The position numbers and the translations under genes were made by a program. Below the pieces are notes generated by a model. The model saw only the letters and a program-made list of their open reading frames with translations. It was not told the origin of the DNA and made no database searches. Shown one piece after another: positions 600-11,506 of a stretch of 64,000 nt of DNA; the first letter of the stretch is position 1; the number at the start of each line of letters is the position of its first letter. The stretch spans positions 3,944 to 67,943 of the forward strand of contig JACQYK010000175.1 in the NCBI GenBank assembly GCA_016208255.1. The letters run 5' to 3'. Source of the stretch: Deltaproteobacteria bacterium (GTDB lineage: Bacteria; Desulfobacterota; RBG-13-43-22).

Positions 600-3284
600 A
601 TGACTGAAAATGAATGGAAAACCAGAAAAGAGAGAATCGATAAAAAGCTAAAAGCCCTCAGTCCTGCCTGGAAAATCATCAAATATTTCAATGAACTGGA
701 TACTAAGGGCCTCAACGGATACGCTGTCGAAGAATTTCCTACCGCCAACGGTCCGGCCGATTACGCCCTTTTTGTGAAGGGGATGTGTCTTGGTATCATA
801 GAGGCAAAAAAGGTCGGCGTTGGTCCATACAATGTACTCGAACAGGCCAAGCGGTACGCCAGAGGGGTCTTCCAGGGTATCGGAAATTGGGACGGGTATC
901 GGGTTCCCTTTCTATACGCCACGAATGGAGAGGTGATCTGGCACATTGATGTCAGGGATGAGAAAAACCTATCCCGCCAAATATTCCATTTCCATACCGC
1001 CGAGGCCCTCAAAGAATTCCTGGAGAACGACGGCGCCAACCTATACGTTCTTCTGAGAGATACCCCCATCGACATCGAGGGGATACGACCATATCAGAAA
1101 AAGGCCATCGAGGCCATCGAAACGGCCATCAGCCAAGGCAAGCGGGCCATGCTCGTGGCCATGGCCACCGGAACGGGCAAGACCTTTCTCACCGTCTCTC
1201 AAATCTATCGTCTCCTCCAGGCCAAATGCGCCAGACGGGTTCTTTTTTTGGTCGATCGCCGGGCACTGGCAGCCCAGGCGGTTCGAGAGTTCGCTTCCTT
1301 CAATACCCCTGGAGGGCATAAGTTCGATCAGGAATATGAGGTCTACAGCCAGCGCTTCCGACGTGAAGATTTTGATGAAGACCAACCTTTCGATCCCAAG
1401 GTGCTGCCCAATGCCTATCTGACTGCTCCGCAGGCCTCCCATACCTTTGTCTACGTCTCCACCATCCAGCGGATGGCCATCAATCTCTTTGGGTTTGAAT
1501 CCGCTTTTTCTCAAAGCCGGAGTGATCCCGATTATGAAGACGAGGCGGATAAACTGGACATCCCCATTCATGCTTTTGATCTGATTATCGCCGATGAATG
1601 TCACCGCGGATACACGGCCAGGGATGATGCCGTCTGGCGAGGTGTTATGAATCATTTCGACGCCGTGAAAATCGGCCTAACGGCCACCCCGGCCCTCCAC
1701 ACTCTGTCTCTTTTCAATGAAGTAATCTACCGTTACTCAATGGAAGAGGCCGTGCTTGACGGCTGGCTGGTGGATTATGAGGCGGTAAAGATCAGGTCCG
1801 ACGTGCGTATGCAAGGGGCCTTCCTCAAAGAGGGTGAGCAGGTGGGTTTCATCGACACGGAGACGGGAAAGGAGACTTTCGACCATCTCGAGGATGAGCG
1901 ACAGTTTGGCACGGAAGAAATCGAGGTAAAAATTACTTCCCCGGACAGCAACCGCAAGATTATCAAAGAGCTTGCCCGATATGCTTTTGCTCACGAAAAG
2001 GAAAACGGCCGTTTCCCTAAAACCCTCATCTTTGCCGCCAACGACCTGCCCCACACCTCTCATGCCGACCAAATCGTTCGAATCTGCCGGCAGGAATTCG
2101 GTCAGGGTGACAGTTTTGTTCAGAAAATCACCGGAAGTCCCACGGTGGACAGACCCCTTCAGAAGATACGGGAGTTCAGGAACAGGCCGAATCCCAAAAT
2201 CGTGGTGACTGTTGATATGCTCTCCACCGGTGTCGATATTCCTGCTCTGGAATTCATCGTTTTCCTGCGCCCTGTCAAATCAAGGATCCTTTGGGTGCAG
2301 ATGCTCGGCCGGGGTACGAGAAAATGCGACCTCATCAATAAAGAGAAATTTGTCATCTTCGATTGTTTCGACGGCACATTGATTGAGTATTTCAAGAACA
2401 CTACCGATTTTGACGTCCAGGTATCCAGCCAAGAACCTCTGCCTATCGATCAGGTCATTGAAAACATCTATCAGAACATCGACCGGGACTACTATACCAA
2501 GGTCCTGGTTAAGCGGCTTCACCGCATTGACCGCACCATGAGCGGTCAGGCCCACGAGCAATTCAGAGCTTTCATCCCTGAGGGTGACCTCGGTAAATTT
2601 GCCAAAGAATTGCCGGAAAAGATCAAGAACGATTTTACCAATACTCTGGCCCTTCTTCGTCAGAAAGACTTTCAGGACCTCTTGGTCAATTATGAACGGG
2701 CTAAAAGGACCTTTGTTGTGGGATATGAGGTTGAGGATACCGTGTCATCGGAGGTCATGATCCGTCTCGGCTCCGACTATCAGAAACCGGAAGATTATCT
2801 GGAGGCCTTTGCCCGTTTCGTCAAAGAAAATCCGGAGCAGATCGAGGCCATCAAAATCCTCATGGAAAGGCCGAAACAGTGGAACGCCAAGGCGCTTACC
2901 GAGTTGAGGGCGAAATTAAATCTCAATAAATTTCCTGAGAAGGAGCTACAAAAGGCCCATCAACTGGTTTATAAAAAGGCCCTGGCCGACATCATCTCTA
3001 TGGTAAAACACGCCGCCAGGGAGGAAGAGCCGATTACCTCGGCCCAGGAGCGGGTTGACCGGGCCGTGGCCAAAGTTACAGCAGGGGTTCCCATGACCGA
3101 CGAACAACAAAAATGGCTGGAATATATTCGAAATCATCTTATTGAGAACTTGACCATCGACCTTAATGATTTTGACACCCTGCCTGTCTTTGAACGGCAT
3201 GGTGGACGTAACCGGGCCAATACGGTTTTTAATAATGAATTGGAAAGATGGATAAACGACATCAACTATGCGGTGGCCGCATAG
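600..3284 (+). CDS. hsdR: Type I restriction enzyme R subunit (HsdR)
   Basis: 894 aa. HsdR-type N-terminus (MTENEWKTRKERIDKKL), Walker A MATGTGKT, DEAH-type IIADECHRG and helicase motif VI QMLGRGTR. The C-terminal ~150 aa look like the EcoEI-type R C-terminal domain (from memory). It is the first gene of an R-M-S operon. Confidence 0.93.
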   Translation: MTENEWKTRKERIDKKLKALSPAWKIIKYFNELDTKGLNGYAVEEFPTANGPADYALFVKGMCLGIIEAKKVGVGPYNVLEQAKRYARGVFQGIGNWDGYRVPFLYATNGEVIWHIDVRDEKNLSRQIFHFHTAEALKEFLENDGANLYVLLRDTPIDIEGIRPYQKKAIEAIETAISQGKRAMLVAMATGTGKTFLTVSQIYRLLQAKCARRVLFLVDRRALAAQAVREFASFNTPGGHKFDQEYEVYSQRFRREDFDEDQPFDPKVLPNAYLTAPQASHTFVYVSTIQRMAINLFGFESAFSQSRSDPDYEDEADKLDIPIHAFDLIIADECHRGYTARDDAVWRGVMNHFDAVKIGLTATPALHTLSLFNEVIYRYSMEEAVLDGWLVDYEAVKIRSDVRMQGAFLKEGEQVGFIDTETGKETFDHLEDERQFGTEEIEVKITSPDSNRKIIKELARYAFAHEKENGRFPKTLIFAANDLPHTSHADQIVRICRQEFGQGDSFVQKITGSPTVDRPLQKIREFRNRPNPKIVVTVDMLSTGVDIPALEFIVFLRPVKSRILWVQMLGRGTRKCDLINKEKFVIFDCFDGTLIEYFKNTTDFDVQVSSQEPLPIDQVIENIYQNIDRDYYTKVLVKRLHRIDRTMSGQAHEQFRAFIPEGDLGKFAKELPEKIKNDFTNTLALLRQKDFQDLLVNYERAKRTFVVGYEVEDTVSSEVMIRLGSDYQKPEDYLEAFARFVKENPEQIEAIKILMERPKQWNAKALTELRAKLNLNKFPEKELQKAHQLVYKKALADIISMVKHAAREEEPITSAQERVDRAVAKVTAGVPMTDEQQKWLEYIRNHLIENLTIDLNDFDTLPVFERHGGRNRANTVFNNELERWINDINYAVAA

Positions 3285-3296
3285 AAAGGACCGGTC

Positions 3297-4712
3297 TTGA
3301 CGGATATTGTCAATAAACTCTGGGGATTTTGTCACACTCTACGGCATGACGGCGTGGATTACGGCGATTACATCGAACAGCTTACCTATCTGCTTTTTCT
3401 TAAAATGGCCGACGAAAAAGGGATCACCATCCCTAAGGGTTGTACCTGGGAGGCCTTGAAGAAAGAGTCCGGCCCGGCCCTGATCGATCTCTATTCGGAG
3501 ATACTGCGCAAATTGCGTGATGAAAAGGGCCTGCTCGGCGACATCTTTACCCAGTCAGTGCCCCGCTTTAATAATCCCGTAAATCTAAAACGTCTCATTA
3601 CCATGATCGATGAAGAAGAATGGTCGGCCCTTGATGTCGATGTCAAAGGGGCGGCCTTTGAAGGGCTATTGGAAAAAGCGGCCAGCGAAGGGAAAAAGGG
3701 CGCCGGGCAATACTTCGCCCCCAGGGTCCTGATCAAGTCCATTGTCCGGGTCATGAGGCCCGATCCCCGGACAAACGCGGAATTTACCATCTGCGATCCG
3801 GCCTGCGGCACCGGAGGCTTTCTGATGTGCGCCTATGAGTGGCTGATGGAGATCACCGGCGGGGCCATCGAACGGGATATTGCCAAACGGGTAAAGACCA
3901 AAACCTATTATGGACAGGAACTGGTGCCCCGCCCCAGACGTCTTTCCCTGATGAATCTCTTTCTCCACGGTCTGGAACCCCATATTTATTTGGGCGATGC
4001 CATCTATGAACCCTACCGGGGAAAACTGCATAGTTGCGTCCTGACCAATCCACCCTTCGGCACCAAGGGGGCCAATCAAGCCCCGGAGCGGGATGACTTT
4101 ACCATTGCCACCAGCAACAAACAGCTCAATTTCGTCCAGCACGTCATGAATATCCTCAAGGAAGGAGGCCGGGCGGCCATTGTCCTGCCTGACAACTGTC
4201 TCTTTGAAGACAAAGCGGCCGAGGTCTTTGAAATCCTTATGCAGGACTGCAACCTCCACACGATCCTCCGCCTGCCCAGAGGGACCTTCACCCCCTACAG
4301 CCCCGGCGTGAAAGCCAATGTCATCTTTTTCCAGAAAGGCATGAAAACCGAACAGGTCTGGATATTCGATGCCCGCTCCAATGTGCCGGGCATCACCAAG
4401 AAGGAACGCCCCCTAGGACCCGAACATTTTACCGAATTCGAGGCCGCCTACGGCAAAGACCCCAACGGGCAAAGCAAAAGAAAGGATACCGGCGAACAGG
4501 GCCGGTTCAGACGATTTCATATCAAAGACATCAAAGACCGCTCCTACAAGCTCGACATCACCTGGCTCAGAGACGAATCCCTCGAAGACGCCAATGACTT
4601 GCCCGAGCCGCAGGATTTAGCCGCTGAGGCGATTACGGAATTGGAAGCGGTGGTAGATAGTCTGAGGGATATTGTAGAGTTGCTGGAGAAGGAAGAAGGT
4701 GTGGAGGAGTGA
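3297..4712 (+). CDS. hsdM: Type I R-M N6-adenine DNA methyltransferase (HsdM)
   Basis: 471 aa with a TTG start 12 nt after hsdR. HsdM N-domain (LWGFCHTLRHDG...YLLFLKM), motif I DPACGTGGF and motif IV LTNPPFG. Confidence 0.95.
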   Translation: MTDIVNKLWGFCHTLRHDGVDYGDYIEQLTYLLFLKMADEKGITIPKGCTWEALKKESGPALIDLYSEILRKLRDEKGLLGDIFTQSVPRFNNPVNLKRLITMIDEEEWSALDVDVKGAAFEGLLEKAASEGKKGAGQYFAPRVLIKSIVRVMRPDPRTNAEFTICDPACGTGGFLMCAYEWLMEITGGAIERDIAKRVKTKTYYGQELVPRPRRLSLMNLFLHGLEPHIYLGDAIYEPYRGKLHSCVLTNPPFGTKGANQAPERDDFTIATSNKQLNFVQHVMNILKEGGRAAIVLPDNCLFEDKAAEVFEILMQDCNLHTILRLPRGTFTPYSPGVKANVIFFQKGMKTEQVWIFDARSNVPGITKKERPLGPEHFTEFEAAYGKDPNGQSKRKDTGEQGRFRRFHIKDIKDRSYKLDITWLRDESLEDANDLPEPQDLAAEAITELEAVVDSLRDIVELLEKEEGVEE

Positions 4713-6142
4713 GAGAAGAGTTGCCACGAGGATGGAGTATGGCAGAATTAGAGAGCGTTGCCGAACTTGTCAGCGGGGCTGGTTTTCCTTTGAACCTCCA
4801 AAGCCAGACAGGATTTACTTTCCCGTTTTTTAAAGTTGGAAATTTGAAGGATGTAGCTTCAGGAAAACCTTTAGTCTCTTCCGAACACACGATTTCTGAA
4901 AGAGCCGCCTACTCGCTCCGGGCTAGGATTATCCCAGAGGAAGCCACTGTGTTTGCAAAAATCGGCATGGCTATAAGCTTAAACCGAAGACGTCTGATTG
5001 GAAGGCCTGCTTGTATTGATAACAACATGATGGCTGCTATACCAAACGAGGCTATACATCCCAGTTATCTCTTACGCTTTCTTGAGACGGTTGATTTTAT
5101 GCCTTTAACTCAAGCTACAACAGTTCCGAGTCTTCGGAAGGGCAATATAGCAAAGATTCTGGTTCCACTGGCACCTTTGGAGGAACAGCGCCGTATCGTG
5201 GTAAAGCTGGAAAAACTTTTGGAGAAAGTCGAATCCAGCCGGACACGTCTTGAAAAGATTCCCGTCGTCCTCAAACGCTTTCGCCAATCCGTCCTCGCCG
5301 CCGCCTGCTCTGGCCGTCTCACTGCCGATTGGAGGGAGCAATCAAAACAATCAATCGAACATATCATCAGAGATAACAATACTGCCCTGCCTGAAATTCC
5401 CGAAAGTTGGCGATGGGTAAAACTTCCGGATACAGGGGAAATGAGTCGTGGAAAGTCGCGGCATAGACCAAGAAATGAGCCTTCATTATTTGATGGACAA
5501 TACCCTTTCATCCAAACTGGTGATATTGCCCAGTCAGGGGGTAGAATTACCTCCCATAAGCAAACTTATAATGAGGCAGGTCTTGCCCAGAGCCGTCTTT
5601 GGCCAGCTAACACCATTTGCATCACGATCGCTGCGAACATTGCTGAGTCGGCCATTTTGACCTATCCAGCATGTTTTCCCGACAGCATTGTCGGGATCAT
5701 TGCAAATTCTGTGGTCTGTTTGGCAGAGTATGTTGAATTTTTCATCCGGGTAGCGAAAACAGATCTATCGACATTTGCCCCTGCGACGGCCCAGAAGAAC
5801 ATCAATATTGCCATTTTAAATGAGGTGGCTGTCCCTCTCCCCCCTCTAATAGAACAACATGAAATCGTCCGCCGTGTGGAAGAACTCTTTGCCCTTGCCG
5901 ACCAGATCGAAGCCCGTTACCAGAAAGCAAAAGCCCATGTGGACAAACTCACCCAATCCATCCTGGCCAAAGCCTTCCGTGGCGAACTCGTCCCCCAAGA
6001 CCCAAACGATACACCTGCGATAATTTTGTTGAGTGAAATTGATATTGGCAAGAAATACTTTAAAAACACCCTTCTCAAAAGATCAAAGATGAGAGAAAAA
6101 CATAAAATAAAAACTAGAGAGGGAACACATGGAGGCGAATGA
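4709..6142 (+). CDS. hsdS: Type I R-M specificity subunit (HsdS)
   Basis: 477 aa with a GTG start overlapping the hsdM stop (GTGA). Two variable target-recognition regions are separated by conserved repeats (LAPLEEQRRIVVKLEKLL and LPPLIEQHEIVRRVEELFALADQIE). Confidence 0.9.
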   Translation: MREELPRGWSMAELESVAELVSGAGFPLNLQSQTGFTFPFFKVGNLKDVASGKPLVSSEHTISERAAYSLRARIIPEEATVFAKIGMAISLNRRRLIGRPACIDNNMMAAIPNEAIHPSYLLRFLETVDFMPLTQATTVPSLRKGNIAKILVPLAPLEEQRRIVVKLEKLLEKVESSRTRLEKIPVVLKRFRQSVLAAACSGRLTADWREQSKQSIEHIIRDNNTALPEIPESWRWVKLPDTGEMSRGKSRHRPRNEPSLFDGQYPFIQTGDIAQSGGRITSHKQTYNEAGLAQSRLWPANTICITIAANIAESAILTYPACFPDSIVGIIANSVVCLAEYVEFFIRVAKTDLSTFAPATAQKNINIAILNEVAVPLPPLIEQHEIVRRVEELFALADQIEARYQKAKAHVDKLTQSILAKAFRGELVPQDPNDTPAIILLSEIDIGKKYFKNTLLKRSKMREKHKIKTREGTHGGE

Positions 6143-7016
6143 TAATCTTGAAATTAAATTCAGGCTGGAGGGTCCGATTTTCCAAACTGGTATTCCTTTA
6201 TTAGAGACAATCGTAGCCTTACAAGAATTTCATTTTATTATTGATAAAGCATACTCTGCGAATTTTAATATCGCAAAATTAACAAAGAAAGAGAGACAAC
6301 ATTATAGCATTATTGCACAGAATTTTCAGAAAGGATCATTTGAGGCCGATTTGATGTTCGTCATCGCATCTGGCACTCAATTGCTTCTCCCAAGCATTCA
6401 AGCATTTGGCCCGAAAGAACTGTGGGATCTCGTTAAAGCATCGTTCTCCTTTTTGAAAGCAATTATTACCGCAAGGAATTCAGAGACCGAACCCACTGTC
6501 AATATTGAAGGACACGGCAACCATGTCTATATTATGAACGATAATGTGATTAAAATAAGCCAACATGTTTATAATGCTGCAGACTTGTCAGAACCGCATT
6601 ATAAGAAGCTTACTTCTGTTATTGAAAAAAATAAAATTGATTCTATCACTGGAATGGATTCGTCTGGAGAAGGGATTGAACTGACCGAGAACGAGAAAAA
6701 ACTATTTAACCCTAAGGTTACGGTGGAAAAAGAAGTTCTTAAAGTTCGATGCAGTGTCTTTCGATTCGACAAAGAAGCAAACATCGGTAAATTGCGGGTT
6801 TCTCCGGGAGAACCAGTTCCACCGGGCGAATATAATTTCAAACCTATTGCATCGGGAGATTATAGAAAATTTATAGTTGCGATGATGCATTCCTCGGTAA
6901 CATTAAACATATTGAAAGAAATTGAAGTGCATACCTCAGGCTTAAAACGTATCTCATCTTTACATGTGGTCTCATTTGAAGATTTTCAGCAAGAATCCCT
7001 ATTTTCATTGACATGA
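6129..7016 (+). CDS. Hypothetical protein, 295 aa, coupled to hsdS
   Basis: The ATG at 6129 lies inside the last 14 nt of hsdS, with a purine-rich AGAGAGGG upstream. It is a long uninterrupted ORF that is visibly AT-rich relative to hsdR/hsdM. I recognise no motif. Confidence 0.6.
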   Translation: MEANDNLEIKFRLEGPIFQTGIPLLETIVALQEFHFIIDKAYSANFNIAKLTKKERQHYSIIAQNFQKGSFEADLMFVIASGTQLLLPSIQAFGPKELWDLVKASFSFLKAIITARNSETEPTVNIEGHGNHVYIMNDNVIKISQHVYNAADLSEPHYKKLTSVIEKNKIDSITGMDSSGEGIELTENEKKLFNPKVTVEKEVLKVRCSVFRFDKEANIGKLRVSPGEPVPPGEYNFKPIASGDYRKFIVAMMHSSVTLNILKEIEVHTSGLKRISSLHVVSFEDFQQESLFSLT

Positions 7017-7070
7017 TTATTAAAGGCGGACTATAGGCAGCCCAGAATTTCAGCCGAAAGGAAAAAGGGA

Positions 7071-7099
7071 TAGATATAGTATACTCCGTGTGCTATAAT
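7071..7099 (+). promoter_or_regulatory. Candidate sigma70 promoter/operator of the abiE operon
   Basis: TATAAT at 7094-7099 with a weak -35 (TAGATA, 7071-7076) at 17-nt spacing. The perfect palindrome AGTATACT lies between them. AbiEi proteins are known autorepressors. Confidence 0.35.
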
Positions 7100-7137
7100 T
7101 CCATCCAGATTGGAACTACTGCGCAAAGGATGTACCA

Positions 7138-7947
7138 ATGAAGTCCGTTTCGGGGTTAGGAAAAGAGTCGAGAAAACAATTAACGAAGGTACTACGCGGA
7201 ACGACCGGAACGATATCGGTCGCCCAAGCTGCGAGTATTCTTAATCTCCCTTCGATCAAAGCCGCAAAACTTCTTTGGGGATGGAATGAACAGGGTTGGG
7301 TCTCCCGCGTTATGCGAGGAGTATACGTTCCTGTTCCACTCAATGCTGAATCCCCTGACGTGTCCCTCGAAGACCCTTGGATTATTGCCGAAAAATTATT
7401 CTCACCTTGTTATATCGGAGGGTGGAGCGCCGCTGAACATTGGGGTCTTACCGAGCAAATTTTTCGGACAGTAGTTGTTTTGACAACTCGGAAACCAAGA
7501 AACCGCAGTCCTAAAATCAAGGGAACCGATTTTTTGTTGCGAACCATATCGCCTAAGGCTATGTTCGGCCTCAACCCGGTCTGGAGAGGACAGGTTAAGG
7601 TAGCTGTATCCGATCCGGCACGAACGATTGTTGATATGTTGGATAACCCTCAGCTCGGGGGAGGTATGCGTACAGTTGTCGATATCCTTCGGAACTACCT
7701 GAAGTCTGAGACCGAGGATTCTGCGCGTCTGATTGGATACGCCAAACGATTGGGCAATAGCGCTGTCTTTAAGCGCCTTGGTTTTCTCCTGGAATCTGTC
7801 GCACCGGAAGAGGCGGAAGCCATTAAAACCTGCCTTCTCAACATGAAAACAGGAAAAGTCAAGTTTGACCCAGACCTTCAATCCGAAAGATTGGTCACCC
7901 GATGGAAGTTGTGGGTTCCAAAGAATTGGAAGCAGGCTAAGAAATAG
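7138..7947 (+). CDS. abiEi: AbiEi-family antitoxin/transcriptional regulator (type IV TA)
   Basis: 269 aa. N-terminal wHTH-like segment (ISVAQAASILNLPSIKAAKLLWGWNEQGWVSRVMRGVY) and GGWSAAEHWGLTEQ, typical of the AbiEi_4 type. It sits directly upstream of a DUF1814 NTase. Confidence 0.85.
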   Translation: MKSVSGLGKESRKQLTKVLRGTTGTISVAQAASILNLPSIKAAKLLWGWNEQGWVSRVMRGVYVPVPLNAESPDVSLEDPWIIAEKLFSPCYIGGWSAAEHWGLTEQIFRTVVVLTTRKPRNRSPKIKGTDFLLRTISPKAMFGLNPVWRGQVKVAVSDPARTIVDMLDNPQLGGGMRTVVDILRNYLKSETEDSARLIGYAKRLGNSAVFKRLGFLLESVAPEEAEAIKTCLLNMKTGKVKFDPDLQSERLVTRWKLWVPKNWKQAKK

Positions 7948-7959
7948 AGGATATTTTCG

Positions 7960-9390
7960 TTGATCAGCCGTCAAGAAATAATGGATTTTTCGAGAGAGTT
8001 CGGACTTGCGCCGAATGTGATCGAAAAGGACTATGCCCTCGGATGGGTGCTTGCCGGAATTGCAAATACCGAAGGACTTGGTACTGTCTGGGTTTTTAAA
8101 GGCGGGACCGCTCTCAAGAAATGTTTCTTTGAAACCTATCGATTCTCGGAGGACCTGGATTTTACAGTCACTGAGGAAAAGTATCTGGACCCAGACTCTC
8201 TGACCGAGATATTTCGCAAGATTGGTGATTGGGTATACGAACAGGCAGGCCTTGAGATTCCTAGAGATACAATTCGCTTTGAAAGCTATACTACCCCACG
8301 GGGAAAAACCTCTGTTCAGGGACGCATCGGCTATCGAGGGCCCCTGAAGCCGGGCGGGGATCTGCCTCGTATAAGATTTGACCTAACCAAAGATGAATTG
8401 GTAGTTTTAAATCCGGAGATGAGAGAAGTACACCATCCTCATTCCGATTCACCGACTGATGGTATCCACGTTTTATCCTATTGTTTCGAAGAAGTTTTTG
8501 CCGAGAAGATTCGTGCCTTGGCTGAAAGGGAAAGGCCCCGCGACCTTTATGACGTGATCCATCTCTTCAGACATTCCAATGAAGCGGTGGATAGACCACT
8601 TTTGGTGAAAACGTTGGAGAAGAAGTGCGCATTTAAAGGAATACCTCTGCCTTCCTTTGACACCCTGGCCACCAGTCCTGAGTATAGTGAACTTAAATCG
8701 GAATGGCAAAACATGTTGGCCCATCAATTGCCGGTTTTGCCTCCCTTTGAACAATTTTGGAACGAGCTTCCCGACATGTTTAACTGGCTGTATGGGAAGG
8801 TAGAGAAGGTGGTTCAACCGGTGATTCCGTCCATTGGAATTCCCGGTGATGATCGATGGCGAGCGCCCACTATGGCAACGGCCTGGCACTCCAAAGTGCC
8901 GATTGAAGTCATTCGATATGCCGGGGCGAATCGTCTTTGTGTTGACTTGCAGTATCAAGGAAACAAGAGACTTATTGAGCCCTATTCTTTGCGTCGTTCC
9001 CGCGAAGGGAATTTGCTCCTGTACGCAGCAAAGCATATATCGGGAGAACCAAGAGCATACAGAGTGGATCGTATTGAAGGAGCCGCCGTAACCAATAAAC
9101 CCTTTACTCCTCGTTATACTATTGAATTCTCAGAATCTGGTTCCATTTCCGCACCACCCATTAGCCGAAATCCTGAAATTTATCGCCCAACTAAGACGAG
9201 AAGCCCCTTGACAATTGGTTTTGGAACTAAGCGGCTTGCTTCAGGGTATGGCCCAAAATATATTTTCGAATGTCCAATTTGCGAAAAGAAGTTTACCCAT
9301 AGATCATACGATGCATCACTGCGTCCTCATAAAGATAAGGACGGATATCCATGTGGAGGTCGGCTTGGGATCTACATTGATACGAAATGA
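7960..9390 (+). CDS. abiEii: AbiEii/DUF1814 nucleotidyltransferase toxin with a C-terminal WYL-like domain and Zn-ribbon
   Basis: 476 aa. N-terminus IEKDYALGWVL...FKGGTALKK...RFSEDLDF is the AbiEii hallmark. aa ~313-385 are WYL-like (RLIEPYSLRRSREGNLLLYAAKHISGEPRAYRVDRIEG). aa 434-470 read CPIC...H...CGG. The start may be TTG at 7960 or ATG at 7981. Confidence 0.85.
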   Translation: MISRQEIMDFSREFGLAPNVIEKDYALGWVLAGIANTEGLGTVWVFKGGTALKKCFFETYRFSEDLDFTVTEEKYLDPDSLTEIFRKIGDWVYEQAGLEIPRDTIRFESYTTPRGKTSVQGRIGYRGPLKPGGDLPRIRFDLTKDELVVLNPEMREVHHPHSDSPTDGIHVLSYCFEEVFAEKIRALAERERPRDLYDVIHLFRHSNEAVDRPLLVKTLEKKCAFKGIPLPSFDTLATSPEYSELKSEWQNMLAHQLPVLPPFEQFWNELPDMFNWLYGKVEKVVQPVIPSIGIPGDDRWRAPTMATAWHSKVPIEVIRYAGANRLCVDLQYQGNKRLIEPYSLRRSREGNLLLYAAKHISGEPRAYRVDRIEGAAVTNKPFTPRYTIEFSESGSISAPPISRNPEIYRPTKTRSPLTIGFGTKRLASGYGPKYIFECPICEKKFTHRSYDASLRPHKDKDGYPCGGRLGIYIDTK

Positions 9391-9402
9391 CGAGGAAGAT
9401 AA

Positions 9403-10062
9403 ATGAAACGGGTCAAAGATATTCCAAAAGATGAAAGGCCGAGGGAAAAGCTGGCCAAGAAAGGACCGCAAGCGTTATCCGATGTGGAACTGATTGCTAT
9501 TCTCCTTGGCCGGGGCATAGAAGGGCATGATGTGATGTCCGTGGCAAATCAGGTCTTGATCGCCATTGATTCCAACGGGGGAACGCCCGATTGTGCGGCG
9601 CTTCAGAATATCGCCGGCATGGGACCGGCCAAGGCTACCCTGATTGCCGCTGCCCTTGAGTTTGCCCGAAGAAGGATCAAGCCGGAAGGATTTAAAATAG
9701 CTTTTCCATCTGACGTGCTCCCTTTGATTCAGCATTATGCCGACAGGAAGCAGGAACATTTCCTCTGCGTTTCTCTAAACGGTTCCAATGAAGTCATAGC
9801 CGTGAGGGTCATCTCTGTTGGGCTGGTCAATAAGACCCATGTTCACCCCCGCGAGGTTTTTGCCGATGCCATAACGGACCGGGCCAGCGCGATCATCGTC
9901 GCTCACAACCATCCTTCGGGAAATGTGGAACCAGGCAAGGAAGACCTTGAAATCACCAAACAGCTTAAATCAGCAGGGGAGATCCTGGGCATCAAACTCC
10001 TCGATCATATTATTTTCAATAGGACGAGTTATTACAGCCTTCTTGAAAAGAACGAAATATGA
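9403..10062 (+). CDS. radC: RadC-like JAB/JAMM domain protein
   Basis: 219 aa. HhH-like N-terminus (LSDVELIAILLGRG) and JAMM motif AHNHPSGNVEPGKED. It starts 12 nt after abiEii. Confidence 0.9.
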   Translation: MKRVKDIPKDERPREKLAKKGPQALSDVELIAILLGRGIEGHDVMSVANQVLIAIDSNGGTPDCAALQNIAGMGPAKATLIAAALEFARRRIKPEGFKIAFPSDVLPLIQHYADRKQEHFLCVSLNGSNEVIAVRVISVGLVNKTHVHPREVFADAITDRASAIIVAHNHPSGNVEPGKEDLEITKQLKSAGEILGIKLLDHIIFNRTSYYSLLEKNEI

Positions 10063-10221: not shown

Positions 10222-11506
10222 TCACTTGACTGCCATGATCCGCGCCCAGCAGGGATTGACAACCGGGATGCGGACTTTTCCGCCGCGGATCGGAAACCGG
10301 TCGCCCTGGTTCAGCAGATCAATCAACTGCTTCTTGTCCGGCTCCGGAACCGGTAAATCCAGGGGAACCGGTTTGTCCGCGGCGTTAACGGCCACAATGA
10401 CACATTCTTCCGGCGTCTGCCGGGCAAAGGCCATTTGCTCGGACTTGACTAAGAGGGGGCGATAAAGGCCATAGCGCAGGGCCTGGGAGTGATGCCGGAT
10501 TTGAGCCAGGCGGTTTAGGACACCGGGCAAATCCGGGTGCGGGCTGTTCTGAGAGATCTGGGAATAATCGAGACAGGGTCGAAGGGCCCGGTCGCTTCGG
10601 CTGCTTCTTTTCCCGGCGATTCCCCATTCACTTCCATAGTAAATGGAAGGGATACCCGGCATGGTAAACAACAGGCTGTAAAGCGGGTAGAGATGGGCCG
10701 GGTTTTTGAGCTGGCTGGCCACGCGATGGACATCATGGTTGTCGGCGAATGAATAGAGGAGGAGATCCCGATAGATCCCCTTTTCTCCAAACTGCCGATT
10801 CAGGGTGTGGGCCAGTTCAAAATAATTCCGGTCGGCGTGGCTTGAGTATAAACCCTTGTAACCGACATAGTTGGTGACCGAATCCAGGGTTTCCGGGTTG
10901 ACCCATTTCCGGTAATCGCCGTGGATCACTTCGCCCATCAACCAGAAATCGGCCCGGCGGGTCTTACAAAAAGACCTTAAGTCTTTTAAAAAAGAAAGAT
11001 CGAGACTGTCGGCTACATCCAGTCTCAGTCCATCAATATTAAATTCCCGAATCCATGATTCGATGGCCTGAAAAAGATGGGCCTTAATCGAGGGATTAAG
11101 TAAATTGAGCTTAACCAGGCTGCAATGGCCGTTCCAGTTATCGTAGGTGAAGGGATCATTATAGGGGCTGCGCTTGCTGAAGTCGAGCCCCTGAAACCAG
11201 TCGAATTCCCTTTTGATGGAGACGGGTGCTCAGGTCTGTCAAAGTTTTATTGCTTCCCAGCCGGCGGTCCACCTGAAAATAATCGGCTGTGTCATAGCCA
11301 TGGGAAGTGGATTCAAATAATGGTCCCAGATAAAGGGCATTCACTCCCAATTGCTTTAAATGGTCTATCCAGGGATACAATTGTTCCAGCCGAGGTTCGG
11401 GTGGGGAGCAGAAGTCATTCTCAAAAGGAGCGCCACAGAACCCGAACGGATAAATGTGATAAAAAAACGCATCATATGCCCAATGCGCCAAGAAAAACCT
11501 CCTCAA
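10222..11506 (-). pseudogene. GH13 alpha-amylase-family glycosidase, disrupted by an internal deletion and frameshift
   Basis: The N-terminal fragment 11159..11506 (HWAYDAFFYHIYPFGFCG...NALYLGPLFES..HGYDTADYF) and the C-terminal part (...NIDGLRLDVADSL..., FADNHDVHR) are in different frames. The expected ~30 aa after HQKGIRL (VLDGVFNH...) are missing near 11200. Confidence 0.8.

Follow-up and report, generated by a model that had tools for sequence, protein, structure and literature searches.

The locus described here raises the question of whether a RadC-type protein can be the third component of an AbiE system, which otherwise is a two-gene toxin-antitoxin (TA) or abortive infection (Abi) module. 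It lies in a 64-kb stretch of DNA from a Deltaproteobacteria metagenome-assembled genome (MAG), which is called the window throughout this text and to which all position numbers refer. On its forward strand, abiEi (7138-7947, 269 aa, ATG start), encoding the antitoxin and transcriptional regulator, is followed by a long form of abiEii (7960-9390, 476 aa, TTG start) and by radC (9403-10062, 219 aa, ATG start). In the NCBI entries (MBI4766687-9), the three products are named hypothetical protein, AbiEii/AbiGii toxin family and RadC, respectively. An earlier note, made from the sequence alone, had described a tight three-gene operon and proposed RadC as a partner of the AbiEii nucleotidyltransferase (NTase). 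Based on reciprocal neighbourhood surveys and on comparison with relative loci from metagenomes (L-numbered below), the trio is quite probably best explained as forming the 3' half of a composite operon with seven genes, hsdR-hsdM-hsdS-orf295-[abiEi-abiEii]-radC (600-10062), with radC as its terminal gene. Within that operon, radC quite probably is a backbone gene in the Type I restriction-modification (R-M) system, and abiE an autonomous cassette that came to lie between hsdS and radC by a single insertion and was afterwards inherited or spread in a small clade.

From the side of AbiEii, 80 species-representative genomes encoding a long AbiEii at 43-61% identity were surveyed, and the presence of RadC was tested by a profile hidden Markov model. 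AbiEi was located directly upstream of the long AbiEii in 79 of the 80 genomes, and RadC was adjacent to it in none (0/80); the sole RadC-like open reading frame (ORF) lay 4 kb away on the opposite strand. The only recurrent gene downstream of long AbiEii was hsdM (6/71 loci), and a Type I R-M gene was present within 5 kb in 14 of 76 loci. Among the nearer relatives, L003-L006 (62% AbiEii identity) carry MazE/PIN downstream and no adjacent RadC. RadC follows AbiEii only in the closest relatives, namely L007 (92%), L088 (82%), L001/L002 (74%) and L090 (68%); in L089 (71%), the downstream gene is cut by the contig end and matches RadC. Such a survey had been suggested in the earlier note, which took missing linkage as a sign of chance adjacency. 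The linkage was indeed missing in all 80 loci from other species, but chance adjacency was rejected, since RadC follows AbiEii in all closest relatives, from 68 to 92% AbiEii identity. In the ENA assemblies L007 (1-9000) and L175 (1100-9000), the genes hsdR, hsdM, abiEi and abiEii are split into short ORFs, a pattern more like assembly indel errors than pseudogenes, and gene calls in these two loci call for caution.

From the side of RadC, 80 metagenomic loci with a RadC at 57-94% identity to that of the window were surveyed, including 41 with at least 2.5 kb of upstream sequence. The AbiEi/AbiEii family of the window was found in none of the 80 loci. A same-strand Type I R-M ORF was located upstream of radC in 37 of the 41 loci (31/37 in a stricter count based on gene calls), and so the proposed partnership with the AbiEii NTase was not upheld. 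In the 60 loci where an ORF ends no more than 130 nt upstream of radC, this ORF is hsdR in 28, hsdS in 3, hsdM in 2 and another gene in 27, and at most junctions hsd and radC either overlap by 4 nt or stand 4 nt apart. Two operon orders were observed, hsdR-M-S-(cargo)-radC and hsdM-S-(cargo)-hsdR-radC. Precomputed Pfam labels agree with the R-M labels in L007, L088 and L171-L175. The close relatives of this RadC comprise more than 120 clusters at 71% identity or higher, compared with five AbiEii clusters at 68% or higher, and RadCs at 71-95% identity come from MAGs that are assigned to different phyla, Thermodesulfobacteriota, Nitrospirota and Desulfobacca among them. The RadC clade at least 57% identical to the window protein can be described as a conserved 3'-terminal component of Type I R-M operons with either of the two gene orders. 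This association seems undescribed: literature on RadC with AbiEii, Type I restriction, hsd genes, defence islands and JAB contained no Type I R-M-RadC operon in its open-access text, and an earlier mention elsewhere is possible. A different context was seen in L158 (142-4366): here a RadC (64%) is preceded not by Type I R-M genes but by those for a 768-aa HATPase_c protein, for a receiver-like protein and for an HNH endonuclease, and the locus may encode a further kind of DNA-targeting system that ends in RadC.

The boundary between cassette and backbone was located by blastn comparison of the window with L092 and L175. Both share hsdR-hsdM (87-88% nucleotide identity) and radC (79-86%) with the window and carry an AAA_21/RloB pair in place of orf295 and abiE. 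Their homology to the window breaks off within the conserved 3' portion of hsdS (about 6009-6021) and picks up again at 9403, which is the ATG of radC. The AbiE-bearing loci, in turn, share the segment from 7048/7076 to 10062, beginning just upstream of the abiE promoter. Since the shared backbone carries AAA_21/RloB or other cassettes and the breakpoint falls at the radC ATG, RadC is assigned to the R-M system and not to AbiE. The cargo before radC is varied: AAA_21 with RloB in L092, L120/121 and L175; AAA_15/DUF3696 with a gene lacking annotation in L094 and L096; a Pol-beta NTase with a HEPN protein (MNT+HEPN) in L118; a 67-aa protein with PemK/MazF in L171-L174; a 72-aa protein with ParE in L106; an MqsA-like antitoxin in L097; and an unannotated trio in L098. 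Defence or TA pairs predominate among the annotated non-hsd genes that separate the R-M genes from radC, and abiEi-abiEii is probably one of several exchangeable two-gene modules at the junctions in such operons. The idea that the 5' junction of radC is a conserved site of recombination was considered and rejected, the 60 nt upstream being conserved only within groups that have the same upstream gene.

The AbiE-RadC loci themselves lead back to the same arrangement. An hsdS gene lies upstream of AbiE in L007, L088, L089 and L090. L001 and its counterpart from a second sample, L002, could have been an independent R-M-free AbiE-RadC locus; this was rejected, because tblastn and blastn detected, directly before abiEi, a remnant in which ~160 nt from the start of hsdR are joined to ~160 nt from the end of hsdS, the mark of a deletion derivative of a window-type operon. 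The segments of L001 concerned (4669-5033 and 7396-7640) have the same sequence in L002. In both, abiEi and abiEii are intact and radC carries a 1-nt deletion at about codon 19. A frameshifted radC beside an intact abiE in a locus without R-M genes is as expected if the usefulness of RadC depends on R-M and not on AbiE, although this is a single case. All six AbiE-RadC loci thus appear to derive from one hsdRMS-abiE-radC arrangement, which makes them effectively one evolutionary observation. Taken together, the two reciprocal surveys and the blastn breakpoints led to the rejection of RadC as an AbiE-specific third gene.

Several points weigh against placing RadC with the R-M system. The R-M labels of the RadC survey were derived from profiles seeded with the same loci and were checked against Pfam on a sample. 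The survey covers one clade, mostly of uncultivated anaerobes, and some of the contigs are near-duplicates that do not count as independent. RadCs at 57-95% identity stand behind very different HsdR families, which argues against a tight, co-evolving partnership with HsdR. The frameshift in L001 is one case, and an internal start could still yield a 192-aa protein from it; moreover, the AbiE-RadC block was retained in that locus after the loss of R-M, which could mean joint selection. Transcription of the trio and of the operon as a single unit is deduced from spacing and from the lack of predicted signals. The weakest step is the role of RadC in HsdR action, which is drawn from genomic context.

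Three other explanations were weighed. If RadC were a true third component of AbiE, it might be a hydrolase reversing the products of AbiEii auto-phosphorylation or nucleotidylation, or a protease acting on AbiEi, and the trio would be a three-gene Abi system. Neutralisation of AbiEii by phosphorylation was reported to be reversible, with a phosphatase reactivating the toxin in vitro (bioRxiv 10.64898/2026.01.19.700257), so a hydrolase role exists in principle, and the placement of RadC 10-19 nt after AbiEii in the intact L007, L088, L089 and L090 agrees with it, as does the survival of the block in L001. This explanation is nevertheless highly improbable: no recurrent third gene other than hsdM accompanies long AbiEii, relatives as near as L003-L006 have MazE/PIN in that place, close RadC relatives occur without this AbiE, the same backbone carries RloAB with a break at the radC ATG, and the supporting loci amount to one insertion. 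Furthermore, RadC has no AbiE-specific sequence change, and in the only locus without R-M it is radC that is frameshifted and abiE that is intact.

Alternatively, radC could be a housekeeping gene flanking an integration hotspot for R-M and defence genes, its adjacency being merely positional. Defence islands often adjoin core genes, the window RadC clears the general equivalog model with the common full-length architecture, and the 64-kb window holds no second radC, so this could be the only copy of the genome. Against this, radC overlaps the hsdR stop or lies within ~4 nt of it in ~25 loci, in two gene orders and with different HsdR families, which would not be expected from insertions beside a core gene, and it travels with the R-M backbone; the genes downstream of it differ among the window, L007, L088 and L001, its identity across phyla is high, and enterobacterial RadCs are distant from it (see below). 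The probability of a housekeeping hotspot is accordingly put as low as that of a three-gene Abi system. The remaining explanation treats RadC as a general companion of TA/Abi cassettes (AbiE, MNT-HEPN, MazEF, ParDE, RloAB), for example through a shared trigger or reset, with the R-M operon only as the landing place. It draws on the 27 of 60 loci in which a non-hsd gene, where annotated usually part of a TA/Abi-type pair, directly precedes radC; in the other 33, radC directly follows hsdR, hsdS or hsdM with no cassette between them. In the M-S-R operons the cargo sits between hsdS and hsdR while radC is still found at hsdR, and AbiE outside R-M operons lacks RadC in 80 of 80 loci. Because the cassette toxins are unrelated and have different targets, one shared hydrolase partner is hard to justify, and a general TA companion is the least probable of the three. 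The assignment of radC to the R-M backbone, with abiE as an inserted cassette, is retained in what follows.

The layout of the abiEi-abiEii-radC block was largely as described before. The gene identities given in the earlier note agree with matches to Pfam, PADLOC and NCBIfam profiles, and inspection of the ORFs and the sequence confirmed a tight, co-oriented trio in which each start is preceded by its own purine-rich motif resembling a ribosome-binding site (RBS): AAAGGA for abiEi, GAGGA for abiEii and GAGGAAG for radC. Spacer 1 (7948-7959, forward strand, 12 nt, aggatattttcg) separates abiEi from abiEii, whose RBS GAGGA spans the abiEi stop codon, and spacer 2 (9391-9402, forward strand, 12 nt, cgaggaagataa) contains the radC RBS GAGGAAG and forms the right-hand cassette junction. 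The spacers had been called identical; this holds for their length but not for their sequence, aggatattttcg and cgaggaagataa being different. The lengths also vary in relatives, with abiEi-abiEii and abiEii-radC spacings of 12/12 in L007, 12/13 in L088 and 12/10 in L089, and with a 4-nt abiEi-abiEii overlap followed by 19 nt to radC in L090. Equal length is thus not kept in homologous loci, and the 12/12 match is put down to chance in a tightly packed operon. For abiEii, the TTG start agrees with the N-terminal consensus 'MIxRQEIMDF' of 27 homologues.

A consensus scan of the abiEii-radC interval found no promoter-like or terminator-like site, and the single transcript proposed earlier is plausible from the spacing and from the absence of predicted signals there; its start, however, had been missed, the predicted operon beginning ~6.5 kb further upstream at hsdR. 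No terminator was predicted 3' of radC, where the segment 10050-10230 folds no better than shuffled sequences (z = +0.95). Beyond this segment's start, two neighbouring ORFs on the reverse strand (10222-10941, 239 aa; 11159-11506, 115 aa) converge on radC and may be pieces of one disrupted gene.

The upstream half of the operon is occupied by hsdR, hsdM and hsdS, tightly packed on the same strand as abiEi. The first gene, hsdR (600-3284, forward strand, 894 aa), encodes the Type I restriction subunit. Its best NCBIfam matches are PRK11448 (9e-178) and EcoAI-family HsdR, both under the equivalog cut-offs, and its counterpart in L007 has the Pfam domains HSDR_N/ResIII/EcoEI_R_C; at the nucleotide level it is 87-90% identical to L092, L175 and L007. 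The N6-adenine methyltransferase subunit is encoded by hsdM (3297-4712, forward strand, 471 aa; Pfam N6_Mtase, 4.5e-58; HsdM_N, 1.3e-10) and the specificity subunit by hsdS (4709-6142, forward strand, 477 aa; two Pfam Methylase_S domains, 4.3e-31), whose start overlaps the hsdM stop by 4 nt. Only ~5161-5338 and ~5852-6018 of hsdS align to L092, L088, L007 and L098, although hsdR and hsdM are 85-90% identical; the target-recognition domains appear to have been swapped, and the sister systems probably recognise different sequences.

Between hsdS and abiEi lies orf295 (6129-7016, forward strand, 295 aa), an orphan gene and a cargo of its own, which shares 14 nt with the 3' end of hsdS and for which Pfam, PADLOC and NCBIfam gave no match. 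Only 9 relatives were found in a search of 5.8 billion clusters. Among the compared loci it is present in the window only; L088 lacks it and L007 has a different sequence at this position. It may be an undescribed defence-island gene. Two of its relatives occur in other neighbourhoods that resemble defence islands: one has as its neighbours an MmeI-type methyltransferase, a KAP NTPase and an AAA_15 ATPase as well as an MNT/HEPN pair, and the other lies near a ResIII helicase and ParE.

The abiEi-abiEii pair agrees with AbiE in every sequence-level feature examined, namely gene order, AbiEi architecture of the COG5340 type (N-terminal wHTH and C-terminal AbiEi domain, as judged from the profile matches) and NTase motifs. 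AbiEi matches the PADLOC model PDLC02271 (2e-110) over residues 4-266 of 269, and Pfam AbiEi_1 covers residues 88-220. AbiEii matches PF08843 (9.5e-36), PADLOC PDLC02317 (8e-175) and WYL PF13280 (1.1e-5), and is composed of a Pol-beta type NTase (aa 30-267, nt 8047-8760, forward strand), a WYL-like domain (aa 317-376, nt 8908-9087, forward strand), both assigned by Pfam, and a C-terminal CCHC zinc ribbon recognised in the alignment (C438, C441, H457 and C465; nt 9271-9354, forward strand). In an alignment of 28 sequences (the window and 27 homologues), G48-G49-T50, D65-L66-D67 (D65-x-D67) and the four zinc ligands are invariant. The zinc ribbon (region 398-476) sits after a variable basic linker, beyond the end of PDLC02317 (396 positions). 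The long AbiEii family is very large: of 8,000 candidates that were scored, 7,728 clusters matched at E<=1e-10, and most of them are 460-490 aa long. The long NTase-WYL architecture is common in databases, and PADLOC has a separate profile for it, PDLC02317, which covers NTase and WYL. We know of no experimental study of the long NTase-WYL-Zn-ribbon architecture.

Upstream of abiEi, a consensus scan detected a promoter-like site (7071-7099, forward strand; TAGATA-17-TATAAT with the TG of an extended -10, 10/12). The promoter block ATAGTATAYTCCGTGTGCTATAATTCC is kept in the alignment of all six AbiE-bearing loci, down to 68% AbiEii identity. An inverted repeat, AATTCC-N9-GGAACT (7097-7117), overlaps the -10/+1 region; across the six loci it follows ATAGTATAYTCCGTGTGCTATAATTCC as AATTCC-N9-GGAAYT and is perfect (AATTCC-N9-GGAATT) in L089. 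From published AbiEi autoregulation, it is regarded as a candidate AbiEi operator. On these predicted features, abiEi-abiEii is a self-contained TA/Abi cassette with its own conserved promoter and an ordinary member of a large family. It shares with AbiE/MenAT systems (DUF1814 NTase toxins and COG5340 antitoxins) the bicistronic abiEi-abiEii order, the full-length match to an AbiEi model, the PF08843 NTase with invariant GG[ST] and DxD, and an upstream conserved, putative promoter with an inverted repeat, as would be expected of an autoregulated module. It differs from the studied AbiE systems in that the toxin is ~180 aa longer, because of the WYL-like domain and the CCHC zinc ribbon, and in that the pair is nested in a Type I R-M operon.

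The RadC protein has the two-domain architecture of chromosomal RadC (RadC/YicR/UPF0758 family), with UPF0758_N (PF20582; aa 4-78, 1.2e-20, 73.8 bits, cut-off 27.1) and a JAB domain (PF04002; aa 102-216, 4.9e-41, 139.9 bits, cut-off 22.1). With 204 bits, it exceeds the cut-off (180) of NF000642, the RadC equivalog of NCBIfam, and it matches PDB 2QLC (1e-22); none of the PADLOC models scanned matches it. Its JAMM-like motif is H168-N-H170...G178..D181 (nt 9904-9945), and the upstream Glu is present in 'HPREVF'. The Ser of the JAMM motif E...HxH(x7)S(xx)D, which is present in PDB 2QLC and in 71 of the 80 surveyed RadCs, is replaced by Gly178 in the window. An AbiE-linked adaptation was ruled out as the cause, because the replacement tracks RadC lineage: L092, without AbiE, has Gly, and L090, with AbiE, does not.

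In the literature, the N-terminal region of RadC is described as helix-hairpin-helix (HhH), and the family is predicted to function in nucleic-acid processing and is fused or linked to the anti-restriction proteins ArdC and ArdB on mobile elements (PMC3239186, PMC5512222, PMC12458937). The JAB domains of the RadC clade are unlikely to have a ubiquitin-tail groove (PMC5512222). Compared with the enterobacterial RadCs (E. coli and Klebsiella, presumably of the yicR type; only ~34% identical) and with those of a plasmid collection (only distant ones, at most 44% identical, in ArdC/leading-region or unrelated contexts), the window RadC belongs to a distinct sub-lineage with Gly for the JAMM Ser. 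On a plasmid from a cyanobacterium, a 43%-identical RadC has ArdC and a MobF relaxase as its neighbours. No relative of the window RadC was found among IMG/VR viral contigs. As with the short RadCs of mobile elements, which accompany ArdB/KlcA or ArdC, the context of the window RadC points to Type I restriction; in contrast to them, it is encoded by the restriction system itself and not by an element evading restriction.

That TA/Abi cassettes nest in Type I R-M operons is already known, and 'rlo' (restriction-linked ORF) genes occur in Campylobacter hsd loci. In enteropathogenic E. coli (EPEC), DarTG2 lies inside a Type I R-M system regulated by RptR, a precedent both for a TA system within such an operon and for an accessory gene associated with R-M (PMC12255303). 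The present operon is similar in that two-gene TA/Abi cassettes, in sister loci also RloB-type pairs, are nested with hsdR/M/S, but its accessory gene stands at the 3' end and encodes a JAB protein of the RadC type, not a transcriptional repressor at the 5' end. A gene for a Pol-beta-fold NTase beside one for a JAB-fold metalloenzyme also recalls type II of the cyclic-oligonucleotide-based anti-phage signalling system (CBASS), in which a CD-NTase occurs with the JAB isopeptidase Cap3. Between 600 and 10062, however, there is no E1/E2 (Cap2-like) or ubiquitin-like gene, the NTase is DUF1814/AbiEii and not a CD-NTase, and the NTase-JAB pairing is not conserved across AbiEii; the resemblance is superficial.

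A working model for the operon can be outlined by analogy with the studied systems. AbiEii/MenT toxins nucleotidylate tRNA acceptor ends and thereby stop translation, and the phosphorylation site of S. agalactiae AbiEii was assigned to T65 (PMC7450476, PMC10435456, bioRxiv 10.64898/2026.01.19.700257). Accordingly modelled, AbiEi would repress the cassette promoter and would neutralise AbiEii by causing it to phosphorylate itself, with T50 in the invariant GGT motif as the probable site; the free NTase, when released during infection, would add nucleotides to tRNA acceptor ends and block translation. Judging from WYL domains in general, a nucleic acid or a nucleotide is the probable cue to which the WYL/Zn-ribbon tail responds. 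The radC gene would be transcribed by read-through from the R-M promoter, from the abiE promoter or from both. Its product, a DNA-associated JAB metallohydrolase, would serve the restriction system by modulating or cleaning up HsdR action on DNA, for which restriction alleviation or self-protection, or end processing, are possible roles. It is rather doubtful whether RadC is really tied functionally to Type I restriction, and any particular chemistry is more doubtful still. Put forward just as tentatively is the idea that the RadC clade (HhH + JAB) is a dedicated Type I R-M accessory, encoded at the end of the operon and in many cases coupled to hsdR in translation, which would control HsdR action on DNA or bring it to completion, for example as a self-encoded restriction-alleviation protease or nuclease.

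The AbiE-RadC trio itself is ordinary, and it offers a caution: a tight, conserved-looking trio can stem from one insertion in a larger operon, which a two-sided neighbourhood survey resolves. The modestly novel lead is the R-M-RadC association: one RadC clade goes with Type I R-M operons in ~90% of cases, whichever of the two gene orders they have and with several HsdR families. This association complements the known pairing of RadC with anti-restriction proteins. To our knowledge, RadC has been without a function for decades, and its DNA-repair name is disputed. If the proposed accessory role is true, RadC would let a mobile R-M operon establish itself in a new, unmethylated host, the same activity could explain the pairing of short RadCs with ArdB/ArdC on mobile elements, and RadC would gain its first concrete, testable function.

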